Source: Chrysochromulina tobinii (lineage: Eukaryota). From it: DNA of 35,408 bases. Under the pieces are notes generated by a model, which was not told where the DNA came from, searched no databases, and worked only from the letters and a program-made list of their open reading frames with translations. Where the stretch lies: assembly GCA_001275005.1 (NCBI GenBank), contig JWZX01002366.1, positions 1 to 35,408 on the forward strand, read 5' to 3'. A program made the translations under genes and the position numbers. Positions 2,959-35,206 of this stretch are shown piece by piece. The stretch's first letter is position 1; each line of letters starts with the position of its first letter.

Positions 2959-5712
2959 CGCCGGCAGACTGAGGTAAGGGCCAGCCAGTCGGAGGGCCTC
3001 GTGAGTGAGCGAGAGGACCCGCGCACCGACGATGGTCGCCTCGCCGGGGTACTGCACGACCAGAGCAACGAGCAGCACGAGCACGCTCAGCCAGAACAAG
3101 GGCGAGCCGAGAAGGCCGCCGCCACCCTTGAGCTTGGTGCTCGGTACGGTGGTGAAGACACATGTGTTGTCGCCGCCGAGCGTGACGGCCGTATACGCGC
3201 GCGGCTCGGTTGCCTTGGCAAGCGTCGCGAGGCCGGAGGGCGGCGCCGCACGCAGCAGCAGGCCAGTGATCCAGATCTCATGCGGCACCACTTTGAGCAA
3301 TTTCGTCAGCGTGCGGCCATCGACCAGGTGAAGCGCGCCGTCGTTGTCGCCCGCGGCGACCATGCGCCCGTCGGAAGAGCACGCGAGCGTCGTGAGTGGC
3401 GCCGAACCGATCTTGACGTAGCTCGTGCTTCGGCCGGAGCGCACGTCGCAGCGGACGACCCAACCAGCTCCAAAGTTGACCGCGCCAAAGAGAGGTGCGG
3501 GCGCTCGCTTTGTGCCGCCCTCGAGAGGGATGGCGAGGCTGCGCCATTGCGGCACGGGCTTGCGCCGCTTGCCGCCGCCGCCACCGCCGCCGCACAGTTT
3601 GAAGAGGCTAAATTTGGGTGGCACGATCTCCCGCGGCGCTGGCGCCGCCACGACGCCAGCGGCGGCGGCGGCGGCGGACGCGGCGGCAACGGCAGCAGCG
3701 CACGCGGCGGCGGCGGCGGTGACGGCGGCAGGAACGCCGTCGAGCGCCCACGCGAGGCATTTGCCGTCGGGCGCGGCTGTGAGGAGGAGAGAGCCGTCGG
3801 GCGCGAAGGCGGCGGCCTTGAGCTCCTTGCTGTGTTGTCGGCTGCGCCAGAGCAGGGTCCACGGGCGCGCATCACGCGCCGCGCTCGCCTCGGCAGTCAC
3901 ATCGACGACCGCGCTGTCAGCGGCTGCCTCCTTGCCAGCGATCGCTGCCGCGACGATGAGAGAGGAGGCGCCAAAGAGGAGAAGGGCGCCATCCTCCATC
4001 CCGACCGCGAGCAACTTCCCGTCGGGTGAGAAGCACGCGTGGTACGGCTTGAAGGCGTTGGGTAGATTCTGCGGGTCGGGCGTGCTCTCACGCAGCCCGG
4101 GGGGCGCGTCGGGAGGGTCGAGGCTCAGCCGCTGCACGGCCGTGAGCCTGTGGGAAGCGTCCACTGCGTACACGACCACGTCGACACCCTGGACTGTCGC
4201 GACGTGCGTGCCGGCCGCGTCGATGGCGAGGTGAGCGACTGCCTCGATGCCCGTGCCGTGCAGCGCCGTGCGCACGCACGCCCCTTCGTCCGTGATTTGC
4301 GAGAGGAGGAGCGCGTTTGAGAGGCCGTTGCGCGCCGCGCCGCCGCCGCCTCCCATGACGAGCAGTCCCTGTGCCGAGCTGCCCACTGTAAAGAGCGGGA
4401 ACTTGGACTTGAACTGCACAGTCGGTGCGGCGTCCGACTCGTCGACGGCCTGGAAGCCAACCCATCGATTGCGACCCCACGTCGTCGTCGGCACAATGTC
4501 CGGAGGTGGCTCCTCCTTCGCCCCCTCCGCTACCGGCGCCGCTTCGGGTGCGGCCGCCTCAGCCTCCACTACACTCACCGCTGCACTCTCCGCCCCTCTC
4601 GCCGCCGAAATTGGCACGATCATCGCCTGCATCACCGGCGATGCCTCCGGTGCCGCCGCGGTCGCCTCTGCCGCGGCCGCCTGCTCGGGCGCAGGGGGTG
4701 CGGCAGCGGCGGCGACGGACGACTCCTCTGCCTCTTCAGAGCTAGGTGCGCTGCCCTCGTTCCAGTCATCGCCCGACGCTCGCTCGGCCGCCTCCTCCCC
4801 CTGTACCTCGTGCCACCCATCACCCGCCACCACCGCCGATGCCTCCGCCTCCGCCTCGGCCTCGGCCTCGAACATCTCGCGCGGCGAAGGCGGCGGATCA
4901 GAGGCCCCACTCGAGGCCGCCCCACCCGAGGCCGCCCCACCGGAGGCCGCCCCACCCGAGGCCGCCGCACCCGAGGCCGCCGCACCGCCACCGCGGCAGC
5001 GAAGCATCTCGACCTCACATCGCAGCTGCTCGAACTCGGCCGAGCGCTCCTCGTAGGCGGCGCGGATGACCGCCGTAGTGTACCGCTCCTCATTGAGCCG
5101 TGCGCGCTCGAGCTCAAGCTGCTCGGCGAGCTCGCGCGCCTCGGCCTCGAGCTCTTCGGCGGCCGACATCGCACGCAACCGCTCCTCCTCGAGCTCGAGC
5201 TGCAGCGTCGCCACCTCATCTCGCAGCCGCTCCGTCTCGGCCGCGGCCGCCTCCGCGGTGGCCTCGGCCGCCCGCAGCGCGTCGAGCAGCTCCTCACGCT
5301 CGTGGCCGAGCCCCGCAGCGCTGTCGAGCGCCTCAAGCAGCTGCGCCTCCAGATGGCTCTTGGCGTGGCGCCGGCGCTCCGTCTCCGACTCGAGCGGCGT
5401 CTGCAGCGAGGCGGGTGTCCTCATCGCCGCCGGCATCGAATGCGCGTCCAGAGCGGCGGCACCGCCGCCGCCCTGGACCAGGCGGAGCTGACGGATGGTG
5501 CTCGCGAGCTCGCGCTCGGCAAGCTGGCGTGGCGATGCGAAGGTAGTCATGGTGTGGCGGCCGCGGTTTGGCGTCATCGCCGAGCGGGCCGTGGGCTCTA
5601 CCGGCGTGGCGTCCTGCGCGCTAAGCTCGCGGGCGCGGCGGTAGACCTGCGCGGCCGATTGCAACGCGCGCAGCCGGGTCACGGCCTGTGGGAAGGGCCC
5701 GTCTTCTTCCAT
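2887..5712 (-). CDS. SEC12: Sec12/PREB-like WD40 guanine-nucleotide exchange factor for Sar1, with a C-terminal TM helix and a long N-terminal coiled-coil/low-complexity extension
   Basis: Sec12 K-loop motif GGGGxxxxGLxN ('MGGGGGAARNGLSNALLL', ~4310-4356), preceded by 'FPLFTV'. WD40-like strands include 'FSPDGKLLAVGMEDG', 'AFAPDGSLLLTAAPDGKCLAW' and 'CSSDGRMVAAGDNDG'. Hydrophobic TM segment 'LFWLSVLVLLVALVVQY'. The true start and stop are uncertain. Confidence 0.75.
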   Translation of the reverse strand: MEEDGPFPQAVTRLRALQSAAQVYRRARELSAQDATPVEPTARSAMTPNRGRHTMTTFASPRQLAERELASTIRQLRLVQGGGGAAALDAHSMPAAMRTPASLQTPLESETERRRHAKSHLEAQLLEALDSAAGLGHEREELLDALRAAEATAEAAAAETERLRDEVATLQLELEEERLRAMSAAEELEAEARELAEQLELERARLNEERYTTAVIRAAYEERSAEFEQLRCEVEMLRCRGGGAAASGAAASGGAASGGAASGGAASSGASDPPPSPREMFEAEAEAEAEASAVVAGDGWHEVQGEEAAERASGDDWNEGSAPSSEEAEESSVAAAAAPPAPEQAAAAEATAAAPEASPVMQAMIVPISAARGAESAAVSVVEAEAAAPEAAPVAEGAKEEPPPDIVPTTTWGRNRWVGFQAVDESDAAPTVQFKSKFPLFTVGSSAQGLLVMGGGGGAARNGLSNALLLSQITDEGACVRTALHGTGIEAVAHLAIDAAGTHVATVQGVDVVVYAVDASHRLTAVQRLSLDPPDAPPGLRESTPDPQNLPNAFKPYHACFSPDGKLLAVGMEDGALLLFGASSLIVAAAIAGKEAAADSAVVDVTAEASAARDARPWTLLWRSRQHSKELKAAAFAPDGSLLLTAAPDGKCLAWALDGVPAAVTAAAAACAAAVAAASAAAAAAGVVAAPAPREIVPPKFSLFKLCGGGGGGGKRRKPVPQWRSLAIPLEGGTKRAPAPLFGAVNFGAGWVVRCDVRSGRSTSYVKIGSAPLTTLACSSDGRMVAAGDNDGALHLVDGRTLTKLLKVVPHEIWITGLLLRAAPPSGLATLAKATEPRAYTAVTLGGDNTCVFTTVPSTKLKGGGGLLGSPLFWLSVLVLLVALVVQYPGEATIVGARVLSLTHEALRLAGPYLSLPAPVTAPVEAMGQPTGATPMEAQAP
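4901..4989. repeat. 15-nt coding tandem repeat (GGAAS/GAAAS x ~6)
   Basis: Repeated GAGGCCGCCCCACCC-like units encode GAAASGAAASGGAASGGAASGGAASSGAS. Confidence 0.85.
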
Positions 5713-5887
5713 TGCGGAGAAAAGAGACTGATTACGCCGTTCATCAAGATCGATTCGTAAAGCCGTCTGTCAGGGGCCACCTCTCGCTCATGTGAGTGTC
5801 TTCAGAGAATTTCTGTGAAACTAGTTCACACGTTAAATTTTGCGATTTCACGGACCTACTAAAAAAGGGCGGGACCGTAGTTTGGTC

Positions 5888-8800
5888 ATGATCGGCTCGT
5901 CAAGGGGCGGCGGCCGCGGACTGCAAGGGGGTGGCCGCGGCGGTCGAGGATTGCAGATTCCTCAGCACGTGCTCACTCAGATCGACGAGCTTTCCAATCA
6001 GCGCGATGAGGCCCGAGCGCAGATCGCTGAGCTCGTTCGGATGCGCGACGATGCCCGAGCAGGATCAGGAGCTCTCCAAGCAGATTATGACCTGCTACGA
6101 GACTCGTACGCTGAGACACGTAGGGCCAAAGACCAGGCAGTGGCTGATAAAGAGAGGGCCGAGGCACTGCTTGAACTTGAATGCCAATCTGCCAATCTAG
6201 AACGATTGGAATGCAAAGTTCTCAAGGCCACTCTGGAACAGGAGCGCTGTTGCACTTCCAAAACCATCAAGGAACTCGAGAGCCTCGTCCTCACAGCCAG
6301 CAAATTAAAGGATGCGGTCACGCTCGCCTCGGGATTTGGCCCCCCGGCGAGCCCCGCATCGGCCTTCGCCTCCAGCGCGCCCGCCCCTGCTGCCTCGGTG
6401 TCACCCATCTTCGCCTTTGGCGGTGGCGGGAGCACGGCCCCCCCTTCGGGCGGACTGTTCACCTTTGGAGCTGGCGCTCCGGCCGCACCCGCGTTCGGTG
6501 AGGGTGCAGCGCCGGCCTTAGGCGGCTTTGGTGGAGGCGCATCGCCGGCATTCGGTGGGGTTGGTGCGAGCGACGCGAACCCCTTTGATGTCGGTTCTGG
6601 AGCCGGTGGGAAGCAGCGCGTAATGAAGAAGTTCAAGCGCCCAGCTACGACCAGCTCGCTCGCCCGCCCCCCCGCCCAGTCCGCCCGCCCGGAGGGTGAC
6701 GAGGACGACGACGAGGACGACGACGACGACGAGGAGGAGGAGGGCGACGAGGGCGACGAGGGCGACGAGGGCGAGGGCCAAGTGACCTCGGGCGGGAGAT
6801 CGATGCGCCCAGGAGAGCGTGCGTCGGCCGTGGAGGACAATGAAGTCAGCATAGCGGAGCACCAGTCAGCTGCCTGCCTACACGCTCTCCACCGGTGTGA
6901 CCAGCATCCTCTTCCGTTCCGTAGCTACGAGTGCCCCGTCTGCCTCGACACTGAGGATGACACGTGGAAGCAAGGGCGGCGGTGGCTCGGGCTGCCAGGA
7001 TGCGGGCACGTGGTGTGCTCGGCATGCTGCCTGACCCTCGCCCATGCGGGCTCCAACCAGTGCCCCTTGTGCCGCCAGTGCTGGCACCTGCCGCGGCTGG
7101 AAGTGGGCAGCCACGTCCGCATCGTGCACAAGGGCGTTGTGGACGCCGCCGATGACGACGAGGCCCGCGCTGGCGGCAAGGATGCAGTGGCTGTGGCCAC
7201 CAAGGGCGGGCCTGTGCCTACGTCAGGGAGCAACGGCCCACGTGGCGAGCGGCCTCGTTTCTGGAGGACAGCCGCGCAACTCTTGAACGGTCGGACGGGG
7301 CACGTCGAGGCGCTCGTCGACGCATCCAGCTCCAAAGTCGCCGTTCGGCTCGCTGAGGCAGTGGCCGACCCGAGCGAGAGTGGAGCCGAGGGAACTGGGC
7401 TCGAGGTGGCGATTGTCGGCGTCGAGAAGCAGCACTTGGTCTGCCTCAGCCCTTGGGGAGGCGGTGCCGCAGAGGGCGTTGACGAAACCGACGCCTGGTC
7501 GAGCGAGATTGTGAATCTCTCGAGCTCGATGAAGGAGGCACTCGCCAACCCCCTCGCGTACAGCATTGAGCAGCTCGAGGCGCTGGGACTTTTTCCACCC
7601 GCCCTGATACGGTGCGTGGGCTGCGAGCGTCACCTCCAACCGGCGAGCTTCTCGAGGAACCAGCTCAAGAACAAGAAAGTTGGGGGCAGCAAGTGTATGG
7701 AATGCGTGGAGCCGCTGCGGCGACCGGCCGCCCCATCAAGCATACTGCAAGCAAGCCCGGGGCACTGGATCATCCACGGCCTCGTCGGGCGCGCCGACCT
7801 CAACGGCGCGACGGCGCTGCTGCTCGGGCACGTTCGATGCCCGCGCCTCGCGCCTCGCGGTTCAGCTTGTGGCGAGCATCACTCAGACGTGGGGTGGAGA
7901 GCGCGTGTCGATCCGCCCTGCAAATCTCGTGTGGACTGCTGCCGGCGCTTCGAAGCCGCCCAAGCGCACACCGCCGCCGCCCGTCGTAGGACAGCGACAG
8001 CGCTCGCCGCCTCAGGCTGCTGCCAGCAGCACTCCCGCTCGCAACGCTCCAGCCACGAGCGCTCCTATCCCTGTGGGTGAGGCTCCAGTGGCAACCCAAG
8101 CCTCGAGGGGGGCATCCCCGATGCCGACGCCGTCGACTGTGAACCAAGCTGGTGCAACAGCCTCGCTCCCGACCTGTGCAACCGCCTCGGCTGCCTCGGT
8201 GTCGCCGTATGCTCTCGCCATGATGGCACGCACCCTCTATGATGGCCAAGCCTACGAGCTCGCTTTGCAGCTCGCACATCGTGCCCTCGAAGAGGCGGCC
8301 GCAGAGGTCGGCGGCAAGTCAGAGAACGAGGCGTCAGCGCGGCAGCGCGGCGTCACGCTGGCCCGCAACGTGCTCGCGGTCGCGGCAGACGAGCTTGCGC
8401 AGCAGGGTTGGGCGATCACCTTAGCCCTCAACGAGGCGCTTGAACGGCGAGTGCCCAACGTGCTCGCAGCCGCTCAGGCTGCTAAGCGCGCAGCGATGGA
8501 TGCGGCCGGCGCCTGCGATGCGCAGCTCGGCGATGCCGATCTGCGCTCGAAGCATAGCGTAGAGGAGCTCGGCAAGCTCGAGACCAAACGCGCGCAGTCG
8601 ACGGCGTTGCTCGAGCGCATCCTCGAGCTACTGCGCTCGCTCGAACGCGAGGAGACAGAGCAGCTGACCGGCGCGCAGGTGGCGCAGAAGACAGTCGATG
8701 AGGCCAGGGAGCAGCAGCGCGCGAGCGATGCGATGCGGGCGATGGGCATGCAGGTGCAGGCATTGTGCGAGGAGAATGAGCGACTACGTGCGGAGAGGGA

Positions 8801-19074: not shown

Positions 19075-20874
19075 TTAAGGCGCGGCGAACGGCACCGACG
19101 AGTGGTGCAGGAAGATGCGCACCTTGCCGTCGTTGCAGCGCCCGTAGCCGAAGGTGTACTCGACCTTGGCCTTGCTGCCGTCGGTGGCGTCGGTGAAGTA
19201 GTAGTTGCCCATGGCGATGCCGATGCCGCCCTTGAGCTCGATTTGGTGGTTGTCGTACACGACGTCCGCCCAGCCCTTGCCGCCGTTGATGGCAAAGCCG
19301 AGGTCCTCCTCGTAGCCGTCCTCGACCACCTTGCCGCCGACAAAGTAGGACATCGCGGAAGCGCCGGTCGGGCGGAACTGATACTCGGCCGCCTTGGTCG
19401 GCTTGAAGAGGACGTTACCGTGGCCATAGTAGTATAGGTCAGCCGCGGCGTCAGCAGCAGTCTGGATGTAGTCGCCCTTCTCCTTGTAGGTCTTGGTGAT
19501 CTTCTTGATCGCGGCTGCCCAGTTGGCCTGCACCTCGCGCACCTCCTCCTCGGTCACGGGCTTGGGGCCGTCGCTGGCCACGAACGGCACCGACGAGTGG
19601 TGCAGGAAGATGCGCACCTTGCCGTCCGTGCACTTCTTGTAGCCAAAGGTGTACTCGACCTTGGTCTTCTCGCCCGTGGTCGCGCAGGTGAACCAGTAGA
19701 TGCCCATCGCGACCGCGGTCGGGCCGTTGAGGTCGATCTGGTGGTTGAGGAACTCGACGTCCGCCCAGCCCTTGCCGCCGTTGATGGCGAAGCCGGCATC
19801 CTCCGCGATGCCGTTCTCGACCGCGTTCTTGCCGACAAAGTAGGACATCGCGGAAGCGCCGGTCGGGCGGAAGGGTACTTCGGCCGCCTTGGTCGGCTTG
19901 AAGAGGACCTTCGAGTGGCCGTAGCCGTACAGCTCGGCGGCCGCGCTGCTCGCTGCTCCGACGAAGTCGCCGCCATTCTTGTACACCTTCGAGATCGTCT
20001 TGATGGAGCTGGCCCACGACTTCTGCGCCGCGATCACCTCGGCCTCGGTCACATCGGCCACGCTCTGCTTAGAAGGCTTCGTGCCGGCCACGAACGGCAC
20101 CGACGAGTGGTGCAGGAAGATACGCACCTTGCCGTCCGTGCACTTCTTGTAGCCAAAGGTGTACTCGACCTTGGTCTTCTCGCCCGTGGTCGCGCAGGTG
20201 AAGTAGTAGTTGCCCATCGCGATGGCATTGTTGCCCTCGACCTGGATCTGGTGGTTGTCGAAGACGACAGACTTCCAGCCCATGCCGCCGTTGATGGCAA
20301 AGCCAGCGTCCTCCTCGATGCCATTGGCCACTGCATTCTTGCCGACAAAGTAGGACATCGCCATGGAAGCCGTCGGGCGGAACTGAGCCTGAACAGCCTT
20401 GGTCGGCTTGAAGAGGACGTTCGAGTGTCCATCTGTGAGAGGTGCACGGAGCCAAGGTGTGAGCATTGAGTGGAGGCGTAAGCTGAGAGCGATCGATGTG
20501 CGTTTGGGGACGGCTAGCTTCCTGCCGCGAGCTTCCGTCTGAACTTGCGTCTGAGTTTGAGAGGCTCGAACGCGCTTACAGGCGTACAGCTCGCCCGCGG
20601 CCTTGCCCGCGACGCCAACGTAGTCACCGCCCTCCAGGTACGTCTTCGAGATGGTCGCGATCGCGTTCGCCCACGAGTTCTGCGCCGCACGCACCTCCTT
20701 CTCGGTCACAGTAAAGGCGGCGGTGGGCACAACCATACCCTTTCCGGTCAAGACGGTGGCCACTTTCGAGCCAATCCCGAAGATCATTTCGGGCGTCGAG
20801 GTGCGCACGTTCACATTGCGAACGCCGGCATGCGGTTGAACAAAGAGGGAGAGGACTGAGACGTAGAAGAGCAT
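19075..20874 (-). CDS. Iota-class carbonic anhydrase (LCIP63/COG4875-like, NTF2/CaMKII-AD fold) with three tandem domains and a predicted plastid-targeting leader; one intron at 20433-20579
   Basis: Three copies of 'VTExEV..AQ..W...I..I...Y...VLFKPTKA...FRPT...AMSYFVG...GFAINGGKGW..V.F.NHQI...AMGNYYFT...KVEYTFGY...KVRIFLHHSSVPF', each ending in the HHSS motif of iota-CAs. The N-terminus is a hydrophobic signal followed by an R/S/T-rich segment ending in PEM. Removing the GT-AG intron restores ELYAYGHSNVLFKP. Confidence 0.9.
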   Translation of the reverse strand: MLFYVSVLSLFVQPHAGVRNVNVRTSTPEMIFGIGSKVATVLTGKGMVVPTAAFTVTEKEVRAAQNSWANAIATISKTYLEGGDYVGVAGKAAGELYACKRVRASQTQTQVQTEARGRKLAVPKRTSIALSLRLHSMLTPWLRAPLTDGHSNVLFKPTKAVQAQFRPTASMAMSYFVGKNAVANGIEEDAGFAINGGMGWKSVVFDNHQIQVEGNNAIAMGNYYFTCATTGEKTKVEYTFGYKKCTDGKVRIFLHHSSVPFVAGTKPSKQSVADVTEAEVIAAQKSWASSIKTISKVYKNGGDFVGAASSAAAELYGYGHSKVLFKPTKAAEVPFRPTGASAMSYFVGKNAVENGIAEDAGFAINGGKGWADVEFLNHQIDLNGPTAVAMGIYWFTCATTGEKTKVEYTFGYKKCTDGKVRIFLHHSSVPFVASDGPKPVTEEEVREVQANWAAAIKKITKTYKEKGDYIQTAADAAADLYYYGHGNVLFKPTKAAEYQFRPTGASAMSYFVGGKVVEDGYEEDLGFAINGGKGWADVVYDNHQIELKGGIGIAMGNYYFTDATDGSKAKVEYTFGYGRCNDGKVRIFLHHSSVPFAAP

Positions 20875-20990
20875 TCTGTGTCCTTCGAGTTCGCAAGAAG
20901 GTATCTAAATCTGGAAATCTGGAATCTCGCGGTTTCCAAAAGACGACGGGAATCAGAATCATCAACGATGCGGCTGAGACCGGGAACAGA

Positions 20991-28798: not shown

Positions 28799-29499
28799 CT
28801 AACAGAAGGCAAGGCCCGCATCGAGCAGCTGCAGCCGCAGCAGCACCTGGTGCGCCGAGTCGGACTGCGCGGGCGGGTTCTCCTTCGATTCCTTTTCCTT
28901 ATCGGCCTTCTCCTTGTCGGCCCTCTCCTTCTCCGCGGCCGCTGCCGCGGCGCCCTTGCTCTTCTTGTCGGCGCCGCCTGCGTCCAGCTTGCGAAGCTCC
29001 TTCTCGAGCTTGACCTTCGTGTCCTCGAGCCCCCCATCGGCGAGCCACCAGCGCCGGAAGCCCTTGCGGAACGCCGTCTTGGGCAGCGCCTTGGCGTACT
29101 GCAGCAGCAGCTCGCCGAGCGAGCCCGCATCCTCACAAGTCGACAGGAGGTCGGCCCACCGTCGGCGGCACTCGTCGGCGCCGGGTCGAACTGACGAGTG
29201 CGACACATCGTCCGCGGCCGTGCCGACGCGAGCATCCTCGGGTGGCGGTGCGGGCAGCGCCGCGAATAAGTCGAGCATCTCGAGCTGCAGACGCTCGATG
29301 AGCGTCGCAGGGCGCACGGGCACTCCGCGCTCGATCTCGGCCTCGATCTCGTCCTCGGAGCGGCCGATGGCCCCGAGGCACATGCGTCGGTGTGCTTCGC
29401 GCCTGTCCTTGCCCCAAGAGACGCGGAGGGCGCGCGCCGCGTAGCTCTGCCGGCCGGCGTACGTCCAGCGCTGTGCCGTTGGATCGCCATTCTCATCGA

Positions 29500-29536
<37 letters not shown>

Positions 29537-32500
29537 CTCCCCCTCCGCCTCGTCGTCGGCGCCGCCCTGCGCACCCGTCGCGCCGTCCTCGACCTTGCTT
29601 GCCGCGCGGCTCGCCCCCGTGCTTGCCGCCTCCACCAGCGCCTCCGCCTCGGCCGCCTCGGCCGCTTCCCGGATGGCCGCTTGCGCCTGTTCCGCCGCCG
29701 TCATCGCCTCCTTGATGTGGGGCGCCGTCTCGAGCAGCGCGCGCGCGAGCTTGTGCTCGCGCTCGCCTGCGGGCCTGAGCGACTCGATGAGCGCCTGCAG
29801 CTCCTCCGCGCTGCCCACCAGCCGCCACTCCTCCATGTCCTCCAGAGGCCGGCCGCGCGCCGTCTTGCCCGCCGGCTTGCGGATGCGCACGAGCAGGCGC
29901 GCCTGGTCGGAGAGGCATGAGGGCTCGAGCTTTCCGGGCTCGGCTGGCATGTCCGCGAGCAGCAGCCCACCCAGTAGATAGTACTCGCGAAAGTCGCGAT
30001 CGAAGCCGAGCGGCTCCGAGCGGAAGCGCCCGATACGGCGCTGGAGCACCGCGAACGAGTCGTCCAGCCGCTTGCGCAGCTCGTCCTTGCGCAGCCGCAT
30101 GTTGTCGAGGTCGCCACGCCGCACGGAAGGGTTCTTGCTCGAAGGCATGTGAGGCTCGCGACGAGGCTTACCAGCCACGCTGCGCCCGCGCCCGCGCCCG
30201 CGCCCACGCCCGCGCCCGCGCCCGTCGCCATCGGCGCCATCAGCGCCGTCGGTGCCCTCCGCGCCTTCCACGCGATCAGCGCCATCAGCGCCGTCAGCGC
30301 CGTCGGCGCCAGTCTCGTGAATCGCGTCGTGCTCAGCGTCGTGCAAGCCATTGGCCGAGCCGATGGTGTTTCGCGGGGATATGAGCGGGTCGACGGCGGG
30401 GATCTGGAGCGGGCCAACGCCATCGCCTTCGGCACTCGTGGCGCTCTTCTGCGCCATGGAGGGTGCCCCGACGGCCGCGCTGCCGTCGACCTCCATCTTG
30501 ACGCCAACTTCCGACTGCAGCACGCTCTCGTCGCCCTCGTCGCCCTCGTCGCCCTCGTCGCCCTCGTCGCCCTCCTCCTCACCGTCGCCTTCTTCGCCCG
30601 CACCTGCCTCCTCCCCAGCCTCGCCACCGCCCTCATCGAGGTCGTCCTCGTCCTCACCCTCGCCGCCGCCCTCGTCGCCCTCGCCGTCGCCCTTGCCCGC
30701 CTCACCTTCGCCCTCCTCGCCCTCGCCGCCCTCCTCGTCGCGCCGACGCTTGCTGCGCTCGAGTCGCTCACGTTCGGTGCGGTCATGCGAGAGGCGCGAG
30801 GGACGGCTGATGTTATACTTGGCCGCGAGCTTCGCCTGCTCTTCGCTCTCGATCAGAGCGTTGCGCACCTTGTACTCGTGCCGCTTGAGGTCCTGCAACT
30901 TTTCCGAGGCGCGGCCCGTCGACTCAAAGAATTTGGCCGCGAGCGAGGTCTCCATGAGCAGGTGCGCGAGGCACTCGAGGATCGCACATCGCATCGGCAG
31001 CGGCAGGTCATCGTACTCGACCGTACCGCCGAGCGCGTCGGCGACGGCCGCCCAGTCGCCCGTGCTGATCGTCCCCGTCTCTTCCTCCTCACCGCCGCCC
31101 TCGCCGCCCTCGCCGCCCTCGACGTCGCCCTCATCGTCTGCGCCGCCCTCCGCGCCGCCCACGCCGCTCGCGCCCGGCCTCGAGGGGCCCGACGTGCCCG
31201 CAGACCAGACAGAGACAGAATGGCCGCCCCCGAGCGCGGCGGCGGCCGCGGTCGCCGCGGCCGCGTTGCCCCAGCCCTGCGCGAGCATCGCGTTGATCGC
31301 GACCGAGCGCTTCTTTGGCGCGTGCGCCACGGCGCGTGCGAGCAGCACCATGCGCAGCAGCTCGGGCCACGTGCTCGCGTTGAACGGGCAGCCGGGCAGC
31401 AGCCGCACAGTCGCCTCGGACAGGGAGGCGCAAAAGCCCGCCCCTGCACTGACGGAGCTCGGCGTGAGCAGGTCCGCCCAGAGGAGCTGCGTCGAAAGCA
31501 CGTGAATGGCGAAGAGCAGCTCGGCCTGCGGCGCCTCGGACACTCGTGCCGTCTCGGGCGCGCCCTCGGGCGCGAGCATCGCCTCCCAAGCGGCAAAGTC
31601 GGCGCCCTGGATCTTCTTGAGCATCTGGCGTAGGGGATGCGATCGGTCCCAATACTCCTCGACGAGCAGCGCCTTGCGCAGCTTCTTACCGCGCCCCTGC
31701 GGGCGCGCCGGCTTGGCGCAGCGCGTCTGCTCCACGAGAGGAGGCGGCGGGCAGAGGAGGACGTGCTCCGCATGCCCCTCGATGAGCTCGTCGCCCTTCA
31801 CCTCGAGCAGCGTCGCCTTGGGCACGATCGCCGTGTAAAAGTAGCGGATGAAGTCGTACGCCGCCAGCGCGCCCGCGACTGTCGGCGGCGGCAGACGGCT
31901 AGCCGGTCGATCGGGCACCGCCACCTGTGCCGCGCCCACGTCACAATCCTCAACGAGCGCGTCGTCGACCAGGTCGGGCTTGCGCGGCACCGCCGCCGCC
32001 GAGAGCTGCTGGCAGAAGCGCCGGTGGCCTCCGAGCGCACCCATCGAGCCGAACGAACGCTGGCACGAGTCGCACAGGAAGTTGCCCTGCTCGTCGCGCA
32101 GCGGCGCGGCTGTGTGGCCGGCGCGGAAGCGCGCCGAACACGCTGAGCAGAGCGTCTTTGGCCCCTCGGGGCCCGGGCCCTTGCCCGCGCACTGGTCGAC
32201 ACGGCACTCGCACCACTGGCAGCGCCACTCGCCCTTGTCGCAAAAGCGCCGGTGCCCACCGAGCGCCCCGATCGTGTCGAACTGGCGTGTGCAGCTCTCG
32301 CACACGAACTTGCCCTCGGCGTTGGTGACAGGCGCGGCGGCCGCTGCGCCGTGCTTCTTGAACCGCACCGAGCACGCATGGCAGAGCGTCTTCGCGCCAT
32401 CTGGCCCGCCGCCTGTCTTGCCCGCACAGTCCTCCAGGGTGCAGTCACACCAACCGCACCGCCACGCGCCGCGCTCGCCGTCGCAGAAGCGACGGTGCGC

Positions 32501-33941
32501 GCCGAGCGCAGCGAGCTTGTCGAAACCCTTTTCGCACCGCTCGCACACGTACAGGCCGTGCTCGTTCGGCTCGGGGGGGCCTGTTTGCCCCTCCTTGAAC
32601 CGACCCGAGCATGCGCAGCACAGCGTCTTCGGCCCCTTGGGGCCGGGCCCTTTGCCTGCGGCCACGTCCGCCTTGACCTCACACCAGCCGCAACGCCAGG
32701 AGCCGTGCTCGCAGAAGCGCCGGTGGCCACCGAGCGCGCCGATGGTGTCGAAGGGGCGCTTGCAGTCGGGGCACACGAACTTGCCTTCCTCGTCCTTGAT
32801 GGGCATCGACGTGTGCCCGGCGCGAAAGCGCGAGCCGCACGCATTGCACAGCGACTTGGCGCCGTTGGGGCCGTTGGCCTTGGAGGGCGTGTCGATCTCC
32901 TTGCATGCGCACCAGTCGCACTGCCACTTGCCGCCGGTGCAGTGGCGCAGGTGCTGTGCCATGAGCTCGAGCGATGCAAGCCCCTGCTGGCACGTCGGGC
33001 ACGGGTAGCTGCCGTCCTCGGAGGGCTCGATAGCTTTGGCGATCGCCATCGCCGACGCCGTCGTGAGCTTGCCGCTCCCGCCGCCCTCTTTCGCGCTCGA
33101 GCTGCGCGAGCGCTTGGCCGCTGGCGGCTTCGGCGCCGCCGTGCTGCCGTCGGCCGCCTCGGTGCTGCCATCGGCCGGCGTGCCGCCCTCGCCCTCGGCC
33201 GCCGCGGCCGCCTCGGCCGCCGGCGCGGCGGCGGCCTTGCGCTTGACTGGCTTCTTCGGCGCCTTGCCGGGCACTCGAGGCTGCTGCTGCTGCTCCGGCG
33301 GTGGCGGCATCGGCTGCTGCTGCTGCTGCTGCTGCTGCTCCTTCTGCGGCTGCGGCTGCTGCTGCTGCTGGTAATCCTGCTGGTACTGCTGCTGGTACTG
33401 CTGCTGGTACTGCTGCTGCTGCGGCTGCAGCGGCGGCTGCGGCGGCGGCTGCTGGTACGCCACCTGGCCACCCGCCATTGCATGCAGCTGCGGATGCAGC
33501 TGCGGATGCAGCTGCGGATGCAGCTGCGGGTATGACTGCGGCGCCGGCGCGCCAGGAGGGCGCAGCACGGACGCGGCTGGGGCGCCAGCAGCGGCCACAG
33601 ACGACAGTAGGCCCAGAGGACGCGACTGTAGCACCGTCGGCGGACCGATGGGGCTGGCGTTTGCGCTCGTCTGGTGGGTCAGAATCGTAGGCGGCTTGTG
33701 CGCGGCGGCGGCGGCCTGTGCGGCCGCGGCGGCCTGGTGCGCCGCCGCAAGCGCCGCGTGCTGGGCCGACTGCGCTGTGAAGTTCACAGCGCCGTGCTGG
33801 GCCGTCTGTGCTGCCGCGATGTGCTGGCCAGGCCAGGCAGGAACGGGCGGCGGCGCAACCTGGTAGACCCCTGTGACCTGCGCGAGCGGCGCTCCTGAGG
33901 GCGGCTGCGGCTGCCCCAGTGGCCGGTGCGATGCCTTCTGC

Positions 33942-34034
<93 letters not shown>

Positions 34035-34531
34035 GGCTGCGGCTGCGGCTGCTGGTGCTGGTGCTGGTGCTGGTGCTGGTGCTGCTGGTGCGCCCGCACC
34101 TGGGCTTGCGCCTGCGCAGCAGCTGCTGTGGCTGCGGCCGCAGCAGCGGCGGCAGCGGCTGCAGCGGTTGGCAGGAGCGGGACGCGCGTGCTGGGCGGCG
34201 TTGCATGCGAGGGCGCAAGCACCTGCAGCGCTCCAGGCGCTGCGGCCGTCGGCGCGCTCGCAGGCACTCCAGCTGCTGCAGTGCCTGGGAGGATTTGGGC
34301 GAGCGGCGCGCAGGAGCTGGTTGCACTGCTGCTGCTCTGGCTGTTGGTCGCGAGGGACATGCTCGCGGCGGCCTGCGTGGGAAGCATCGACACCCCGGGC
34401 GCGACTGCGGCTTGTGGCGGCGGACCAGGTTGGGTGGGGGGGAGGGGTGGCGCGGCAGCAACTGCCTCCAACATCGCGCCAGTCCGCTTCTCTTCTGCTG
34501 AGCCTGTGCCTGGAGGCTGTGGCTCTGACAT
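28799..34531 (-). CDS. Large chromatin protein: polyQ/low-complexity N-terminus, alternating C2HC and GATA-like zinc fingers, DDT, WHIM1 and WSD/WHIM2-3 motifs (putative ISWI-complex subunit)
   Basis: Single ~1910-aa ORF from ATG 34531. DDT-like 'ALAAYDFIRYF...LLFAIHVLSTQLL...TWPELLR', WHIM1-like 'EYDDLPLPMRCAILECLAHLL', WSD-like 'RSEPLGFDRDFREYYLL' and WHIM3-like 'EELQALIESLRPAGEREHKLARAL'. Confidence 0.8.
33944..34033. repeat. Pure (CAG)30 coding microsatellite (polyglutamine), flanked by QP and QH hexamer repeats
   Basis: Uninterrupted CTG run on the + strand at 33944-34033. Further CAG-rich tracts lie at ~33280-33530. Confidence 0.95.
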
Positions 34532-35206
34532 TGCCGTGCGCCGCTCGCGGATGCGTCGGATCCGTGCGTCCGAGCGGTGCGATCGGGCGGGCGCAAAGGC
34601 GGGCGCACAAGAACTTTCACTTTGCACGGTTCGTGCCTGCGCCTCGGTCGAAGGCTCCGCAGTAAGAACATCGAGCGCTCTTTGGTGAGTACTCTTGTTT
34701 GCTGACCTTACTCGTGTGAGCCCCCAATTTGACGTTGACTAAACTTGATCACATGAAGGGAACGGTCCAAGAATCAAGATGCGGCACTACGGCCACGCCC
34801 TGCTCCTCGATTCATTCGCCGCATTACTGTCCACTCCCAGCGGTGCCAATAGAGCGGTGCTTCGGCAGCCCAATTGCGGCAGCCGACGTGTGCGTCAGCT
34901 ACATGTACTCACACGCAATGACGCACAGCAATGGCCGCGCTGACGAGGCCCATCTCGCTCGAGCGCTTAAACTCCGCACTTTGTGCACCGTGGGTGCTGG
35001 GTGAAACTTTGCTTTTCATGTTTCATGCTTTCATCTTGCAATCCGCACGTCTGTTTGCAAAGGTTCATGCGAAACTGGTCCAACGAAAAAGTCAAATTTA
35101 TGTTGCGAGGGACGCCCCGAAACGGGAGTGCTTTCACACTCAACGCTTTACCGCGTTCGCGGCACAACTGCAGGAGGGAGCGCATTGCCGGAGCGCTTAA
35201 AACCCA

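Follow-up and report, generated by a model that had tools for sequence, protein, structure and literature searches.

We found in Chrysochromulina tobinii that about 95 codons from near the end of a nearby FG-rich gene, likely a nucleoporin, lie inverted and in frame within an old RING/HicA-like gene. In our best explanation, which has as a whole a probability of roughly 70%, the piece would have been copied at the DNA level, later shortened, and would now form a weak putative nuclear import signal. Donor and recipient both lie in the window that we analyzed, a stretch of 35,408 nt (contig JWZX01002366.1), and the captured piece (~290 bases; 289 nt) is inverted with respect to the donor copy, which is 5.6 kb away.

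Match of the captured segment to the likely nucleoporin gene

We realigned the two regions and obtained exactly the counts of an earlier, sequence-only reading of this DNA. Positions 6402-6643 are identical to the reverse complement of 12212-12453 at 238 of 242 nt, and positions 6355-6394 match the reverse complement of 12677-12716, FG unit 2 of the nucleoporin (Nup), at 38/40, versus 35/40 for unit 3. Both blocks are read in the frame of the nucleoporin, and three of the four differences in the long block are synonymous, again as that reading had it. They are found at 6409 (ATC/ATA), 6477 (GCT/GTT, A/V), 6508 (GCA/GCT), and 6541 (GCA/GCG). The V at 6477 arose on the donor side and not in the recipient, as A is present in the Nup homologue P0003 and in P0024. 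A blastn search stretched the long block back to 6392 (245/252, E = 8e-121, far beyond chance), and this insert/donor pair is the longest among 86 inverted pairs within the window.

The segment and its counterparts in the donor are as follows.

6355 to 6391, plus strand: first part (block A) of the captured piece, a single FG unit from the Nup with its FxFG destroyed (AFAFG to AFASS), 35/37 identical to Nup 12716-12680
6392 to 6643, plus strand: block B of the captured segment, 245/252 identical to Nup 12463-12212, the same in L001 and L002
6611 to 6643, plus strand: basic tail, sequence KQRVMKKFKRP, now internal, with KKFK at 6626-6637
12194 to 15938, minus strand: donor, an FG-rich, likely nuclear-basket nucleoporin of ~1250 aa, with an extra base at 14123
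12212 to 12463, minus strand: donor of block B, from the alignment
12464 to 12679, minus strand: donor stretch absent from the insert, 216 nt (unit 2) or 165 nt (unit 3), present in P0021 and P0024
12680 to 12716, minus strand: donor of block A, best match in the alignment

In a gapped alignment, the insert corresponds to Nup 12716-12680 joined directly to Nup 12463-12212, with a GCC overlap at the join of blocks A and B. The donor nucleotides missing from the insert (216 if block A derives from unit 2, 165 if it derives from unit 3) are in frame either way, and the insert has lost 55 to 72 codons and one FxFG relative to the donor. We read blocks A and B, from this alignment, as a single Nup segment with an in-frame internal deletion. 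Block B comprises the 84 codons that precede the final five residues of the Nup and contains five FG motifs and the basic tail; in total, the insert region has 6 FG versus 38 in the donor.

The donor protein carries 33 FG and 12 FxFG motifs in its C-terminal 642 aa and 5 FG motifs in its N-terminal 604 aa, and its C terminus is an FG/FxFG domain with a basic cluster, ending in KKFKRPFKGGA. An intact homologue of 1264 aa (P0003) matches it at 90%. No Pfam family matched the donor, a PDB sequence search with the tail gave nothing significant, and atlas features provided weak pointers, namely, 0.91 to an unnamed cluster and to a cluster automatically named NUP2/50/61 and 0.88 to a Nucleoporin_FG cluster. 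We consider the donor a likely FG nucleoporin. The Nup1/Nup153 label proposed by the sequence-only reading is kept as a resemblance: the donor and Nup153/Nup1 have in common a C-terminal half that is rich in FxFG and closes with a basic cluster (PMC5674887, PMC8140498, and bioRxiv 2025.10.02.680059), but the donor failed the family cut-offs and the recipient holds the tail internally. Basic C-terminal stretches near FG repeats are also reported for POM121 and NUP58 (bioRxiv 2025.10.02.680059), so the tail does not single out Nup153. Between alleles, the donor tail (12197-13231) is under purifying selection, with a pN of 0.0014 and a pS of 0.044.

Authenticity of the junctions

Sequence spanning both copies and the junctions, which had been proposed as a check, is available from two sources. 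L001, an independent assembly, aligns with the window along 19,345 nt and shows 0 mismatches and 2 gaps there, and L002, a metagenome contig of 10,558 nt, represents a haplotype with ~1% divergence; each carries all three junctions and both copies on a single contig. The window, L001, and L002 are identical across 6320-6700 (381/381 columns), and DNA contigs of runs X13 and X5 cover 5700-6439, with the 5' and inner junctions, without any difference. L001 may share the genotype of the window, and L002 is the stronger independent witness.

The window carries extra single bases in short homopolymers at ~7826 and 14123. Both are absent from the X13 and X5 contigs, the one at ~7826 is absent also from L002, and the gap offsets of L001 (one between the two copies, one beyond 12463) fit both positions. 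These bases are assembly errors, and they split the recipient and Nup open reading frames (ORFs). Their presence near the locus could raise the suspicion that the apparent capture itself was produced by misassembly. We give this next to no credence, as the junctions recur in L001, L002, X13, X5, and two RNA runs and the two copies differ at fixed diagnostic sites; L002 already refutes it.

The inverted pair 6355-6643/12212-12716, which is 98% identical, could flip the intervening 5.6 kb, and such a flip would give one gene made of the coil and the Nup end, as P0012, P0022, and P0023 read, and one Nup-RING fusion. Four proteins (P0012, P0022, P0023, and P0024) terminate in the Nup's own last residues. 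The N terminus and the Nup end of P0023 are both those of L002, yet the L002 contig runs on unbroken into the RING part, which makes these four proteins probable assembly chimeras and a real inversion between the repeats less likely.

One gene separates the two inverted copies.

9780 to 11795, plus strand: Vac14 gene (Pfam Vac14_Fig4_bd, E = 2e-68)

Around it, the intergenic stretches 9470-9680 and ~11800-11900 have a very high summed DNA contig depth (5,000 to 8,000 in the bin 9517-9863, versus ~80) and are short dispersed repeats common in the genome; L002 lacks 110 nt at 9563. Farther along the window, the minus strand has at 19075-20904 an intron-containing gene whose product consists of an unnamed domain repeated three times, with repeats of near 500 nt, and at 28799-34738 a 1979-aa ORF with a long polyQ and four alternating zinc-finger repeats, which we take to be C2H2-like and GATA-like.

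The recipient gene and its variable slot

The features of the recipient are listed below.

5888 to 9347, plus strand: recipient gene, one 1152-aa ORF matching P0005, with the extra base at ~7826 removed
5888 to 6354, plus strand: G/R-rich start and coiled coil, weakly constrained
6692 to 6777, plus strand: acidic tract, directly upstream of the RING in all full-length homologues
6932 to 7072, plus strand: C3HC4 RING finger, borderline in Pfam (zf-C3HC4, 21.1 bits for a cut-off of 21)
8967 to 9170, plus strand: HicA-like domain (resemblance only), alpha-beta-beta-beta-alpha in the predicted model (pLDDT 90.6)

The N-terminal part (646 aa) and the C-terminal part (505 aa) of the recipient match P0005 with 0 mismatches, and a gene model under the label Chrysochromulina parva is identical to the ORF. 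L001 matches residues 1 to 1152 at 100%, L002 has an intact recipient ORF of 1111 aa, and the public 375-aa model P0004 spans only the C terminus. From N to C terminus, the protein consists of the G/R-rich start, the coiled coil, the Nup piece, the acidic tract, the RING, zinc-finger-like and helical regions, the HicA-like domain, and a coil. The stretch upstream of the Nup piece varies considerably, with an in-frame deletion of 138 nt in L002, deletions of 10 to 12 aa in P0022 and P0025, and 18 to 19 of 153 residues different in P0021 and P0024.

The zf-C3HC4 score is 18.9 bits on the full protein P0005 and 22.6 bits on the homologue P0026. HicA proteins have an alpha-beta-beta-beta-alpha, double-stranded RNA-binding domain (dsRBD)-like fold with a conserved His. 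The domain at 8967-9170 has the same predicted topology, and a His is conserved in at least 90% of 27 aligned rows; as to family membership, no Pfam family matched the domain in the recipient, weak HicA hits were obtained in 3 of 27 homologues (best E = 0.0099), Foldseek gave 0 matches to the model at E ≤ 0.001 (HicA was found at E = 0.47), and a PDB sequence search gave nothing significant. The HicA label of the sequence-only reading therefore stands for a resemblance in predicted topology, below the family cut-offs. The domain is widespread, uncatalogued, and HicA/dsRBD-like, with an invariant T-x-S-D motif besides the conserved His; the 27 proteins that we aligned share it, and no Pfam family passes for it.

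We searched for homologues of the recipient with a profile among 1.84 billion representatives and obtained 85 hits at E ≤ 0.001. Of two metagenome scans, the first, for which we used the N-terminal 411 aa, gave 591 pattern matches, 0 of which were confirmed, and the second gave 15 loci, of which L001 to L005 were compared with the window and L006 to L015 (20 to 42% identity, RING region only) were left out. P0026 (1430 aa, 45% identical) has its parts in the same order as the recipient but carries an unrelated segment of ~230 aa between the coil and the acidic tract. In L003 (47% identical, with its 5' end cut), a SAP-like motif that stays below the cut-off (E = 0.0013) lies upstream of the acidic tract, and the N terminus of P0040 is quite different from that of the recipient. 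All five close relatives with the recipient's N terminus (L002, P0021, P0022, P0024, and P0025) carry Nup-derived sequence. Relatives without the insert, which the sequence-only reading had expected, were thus found among distant homologues (P0026 and L003), and no insert-less, precapture allele was found among the close ones. By BLASTP, the recipient N terminus had no significant match in P0026 (best E = 0.24). P0026 also contains a stretch (RPA..SS) resembling the 3' junction, but the resemblance is not significant (p = 0.32 versus 5000 shuffles), and we dropped it as a guide to the event. In another homologue, P0029, an extra stretch, presumably U-box-like, follows the SH3-like region, which again points to modular turnover in the family.

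The Nup tail is colinear in the Nup homologue P0003 and the slot holds other sequence in P0026 and L003, which sets the direction of transfer from the Nup to the recipient. The recipient is an old and conserved gene, one segment of which was swapped, and not a newborn one. Judging by the architecture only, we infer that the captured piece replaced older sequence rather than being added.

Transcription

We compared RNA runs X15, X16, and X17 over 5800-7300 as contigs, which carry no strand and may include DNA contamination. Contigs of X15 (6057-6429) and X16 (6162-6439) have the recipient alleles with 0 differences across 6355 and 6392 and overlap the 5' and inner junctions by >31 nt on each side; X17 gave no contig bridging the junctions. 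RNA cover begins at 5894, near the ATG, with none over 5800-5890, and no contig skipping the segment was found among the three runs. Past 6439, RNA contigs show donor alleles only (6477, 6508, and 6541), and 6648-6782 is masked; this gap in recipient alleles (6440-6782) is a limit of contigs and masking and not evidence of splicing. Transcription across the junctions, another proposed check, is thus documented for the 5' and inner junctions in two of the three runs, the basic tail and the 3' junction being outside usable RNA cover. One more run, X21, gave a 283-nt Nup-type contig and nothing from the recipient.

Mechanism and order of events

All junctions are inside continuous ORFs of the donor and the recipient, without an intron edge at any of them, the donor is intact, and the RNA contigs are colinear across two junctions. 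Junctions inside coding exons exclude intron-mediated shuffling, and the exon shuffling put forward by the sequence-only reading has to be abandoned. Most likely, the Nup tail piece would have been copied into the recipient by a DNA-level template switch or by break repair; the donor piece has no intron, so an RNA intermediate would leave no trace. Complex insertions with microhomology are attributed to templated copying during replication or repair (PMC5120786).

The forms of the insert in related proteins bear on the order of events. P0022 and P0025, which are 2 to 3% diverged in the N terminus, have the same short form, while P0021 (Logan) and P0024 (ENA), 12% diverged in the N terminus, have the 55 missing residues in place (long form). 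Changes cluster at the edge of the deletion (5/47 versus 4/242, p = 0.007). We propose that a longer Nup piece was captured first and was shortened afterwards by a deletion that kept the frame and at whose edge the changes cluster. Alternatively, blocks A and B may have been joined during the capture itself by two successive template switches, the long form of P0021 and P0024 being an assembly chimera. The GCC overlap at the join and the clustered changes beside it fit iterative template switching (PMC5120786), and P0024 ends with the Nup's own last residues, like the probable chimeras. We nevertheless consider two switches improbable, because the long form occurs in two different assemblies with the same two A-to-P changes, which are absent from the two Nup copies compared, that of the window and that of L002. 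The capture would in either case predate the split from the P0021/P0024 lineage: these two proteins come from short contigs and may have been joined in assembly, which is probable for P0012 and P0023, yet a chimera of this kind would still require sequence resembling the Nup at the 5' junction in question.

Age of the capture

Over 80 codons, the synonymous distance between insert and donor is 0.046 for the donor of the window and 0.076 for that of L002, compared to 0.061 between the donor alleles and 0 between the inserts. Since the insert-donor pS is similar to that between donor alleles, the capture is about as old as the allelic variation of the Nup. Several of the synonymous changes lie on the donor side; at 6508, the donor of L002 has the base of the insert, so the difference arose in the donor of the window. 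On the insert side, we found 0 amino acid changes in the 80 codons. Comparing pN/pS of the insert with its own donor gave a nonsignificant p = 0.06 and with the donor of L002 p = 0.007, the latter confounded by the donor-side changes.

The sequence-only reading had described a young, local capture in a gene caught at birth. Youth and locality are supported by pS and by the proximity of the donor. Birth is contradicted by an insert that is identical in a 1%-diverged haplotype, has already lost codons and an FxFG, and is seen in a 12%-diverged lineage. The capture therefore reads, from these sequence comparisons, as young but shared between haplotypes and already remodelled.

Could the capture be considerably older than 98% identity suggests, the long block having been kept similar by gene conversion between the inverted copies? 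The edges are indeed more diverged than the core (the 5/47 versus 4/242 given above), and the long-form lineage, despite its N-terminal difference of 12%, shows only 0/44 and 2/80 differences in block B. Over 252 nt, however, the two inserts differ from each other at 0 positions, from their own donors at 7 and 9, and the donors from each other at 4. The inserts thus do not track their own donors, and there is no sign of gene conversion between the two haplotypes compared. Furthermore, the N terminus appears weakly constrained, and a protein divergence of 12% may equal 5 to 10% synonymous divergence, which fits a single event. We therefore think an older capture maintained by conversion unlikely and retain the young one.

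Between haplotypes, the whole recipient gene has a pS of 0.004 to 0.005. Low divergence from L002 extends over 5888-11795, that is, the recipient and Vac14 (pS 0.004 to 0.008), compared to 0.023 in the flanking WD40 gene and 0.044 in the Nup; this could be due to a sweep, to suppressed recombination, or to chance.

Possible function of the captured piece

The KKFK at 6626-6637 fits, within its basic cluster, the monopartite nuclear localization signal (NLS) pattern K(K/R)X(K/R) (PMC8140498), and the C-terminal NLS-like sequence of Nup153 binds importin-alpha weakly, with a Kd of 1.3 uM (PMC5674887). In the recipient, the captured tail now precedes an acidic tract. The most likely activity predicted for the piece would be that of a weak nuclear import signal, a proposal to which we give somewhat less than an even chance. 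Stable anchoring of the recipient at the pore is unlikely, since the region is left with 6 FG, one FxFG is destroyed, and the N-terminal half of the donor is absent.

With the same origin, the piece may instead be a tolerated passenger without function in a disordered, hypervariable linker, for which the odds are close to even; a neutral passenger is about as likely as a weak import signal. The slot sequence differs in each homologue examined (P0026, L003, and P0040), the adjoining coil tolerates deletions of 10 to 46 aa, one FxFG is destroyed and most FG units are lost, and an intact frame, needed for survival of the gene anyway, is silent on the use of the insert. Against a passenger, the 289 nt are unchanged between the window and L002, compared to 4/252 changes in the donor, the basic tail survived the deletion, and the five close relatives with the same N terminus keep Nup-derived sequence. 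We take these three points as no more than hints, because divergence between the two haplotypes is low over the entire recipient gene.

Other chimeras involving the same likely nucleoporin

Pieces of the Nup N terminus were found at 80 to 84% identity in P0121, an unrelated protein of 1814 aa (23 members) with Pfam hits to an ADP-ribosyltransferase and an ion-channel membrane domain; the Nup region concerned is 15260-15908 of the window. Run X5 contains a joint from 15908 to 15613, with 16 letters between and single-copy depth, which reads, by hand, as the junction of P0121 with one residue different, while an X13 contig is unbroken there. For Nup 13335-13779 or beyond (to 13959), DNA run X5 and RNA runs X15 and X16 contain a second copy that is diverged and has inserted T's. 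This copy was not seen in X13, where a different variant contig occurs at 12504-12511. The P0121 pieces and the second copy imply that the Nup donated pieces more than once, which makes the capture of the tail less special and the genome more interesting, and the recurrence of this donor in further chimeras is a hint that fragments of coding sequence are captured at a high rate in this alga.

A broader proposal can be built on these data: the Nup would be a repeated donor (its tail to the RING gene, N-terminal pieces to P0121, and its middle to a third, transcribed copy), the slot of the RING gene would be swappable (SAP-like, unknown domain, or FG plus NLS), and the tail capture would have been selected and would redirect a putative ubiquitin ligase/RNA-binding protein to the nucleus or pore. 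Taken as a whole, we regard this as rather doubtful.

Comparison with known systems

Our literature search, with incomplete journal coverage and supplements excluded, found nothing on this locus. The event belongs with young chimeric genes that arise from partial DNA duplication. An existing protein would have gained a targeting-type module by local DNA copying, in an example that is still of segregating age; if the piece is neutral, it would be an ordinary partial duplication. With the donor known, along with a form that is probably intermediate, a pair of haplotypes, and homologues lacking the insert, relocalization by the captured tail is directly testable.

For the process, a close parallel is the insertions by template switching or break-induced replication mediated by microhomology (MMBIR), which, as in our case, consist of a short inverted copy of a nearby template with an overlap of a few bases and clustered changes (PMC5120786; see also PMC8421209 and PMC7954356). 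They are known mostly from the genomes of human and yeast, and here no pre-event allele was found with which microhomology at the outer junctions could be shown. Among chimeric genes, Drosophila Hun (PMC1463047) is a partial coding copy made by nonretro recombination, as is probable here, likewise fused in frame and young; it is transcribed, as the recipient is at least in part. Here, in contrast, the inverted piece of 289 nt went into a conserved gene that already existed, at 5.6 kb from the donor, and no new locus or gene was created.

POM-ZP3 is, like the recipient, a germline chimeric gene with a nucleoporin-derived part. The human POMZP3 transcript is bipartite, from a POM121 homologue and ZP3 (cited in PMC12305945). 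Its nucleoporin-derived part is reportedly the 5' one of POM121, and its locus a duplicated one, whereas here a RING protein has received a C-terminal FG and basic tail at an internal position. Finally, in the SET-, DEK-, and SQSTM1-NUP214 fusions, as in the recipient, an unrelated regulatory protein has acquired the C-terminal region of an FG nucleoporin (PMC6356203). Those fusions arise by somatic translocation, and their long FG arrays trap CRM1, whereas the fusion described here is heritable, has ~6 FG, and leaves the donor intact. Fusions that employ the FG/basic tail of a nucleoporin are known mainly from leukemia.
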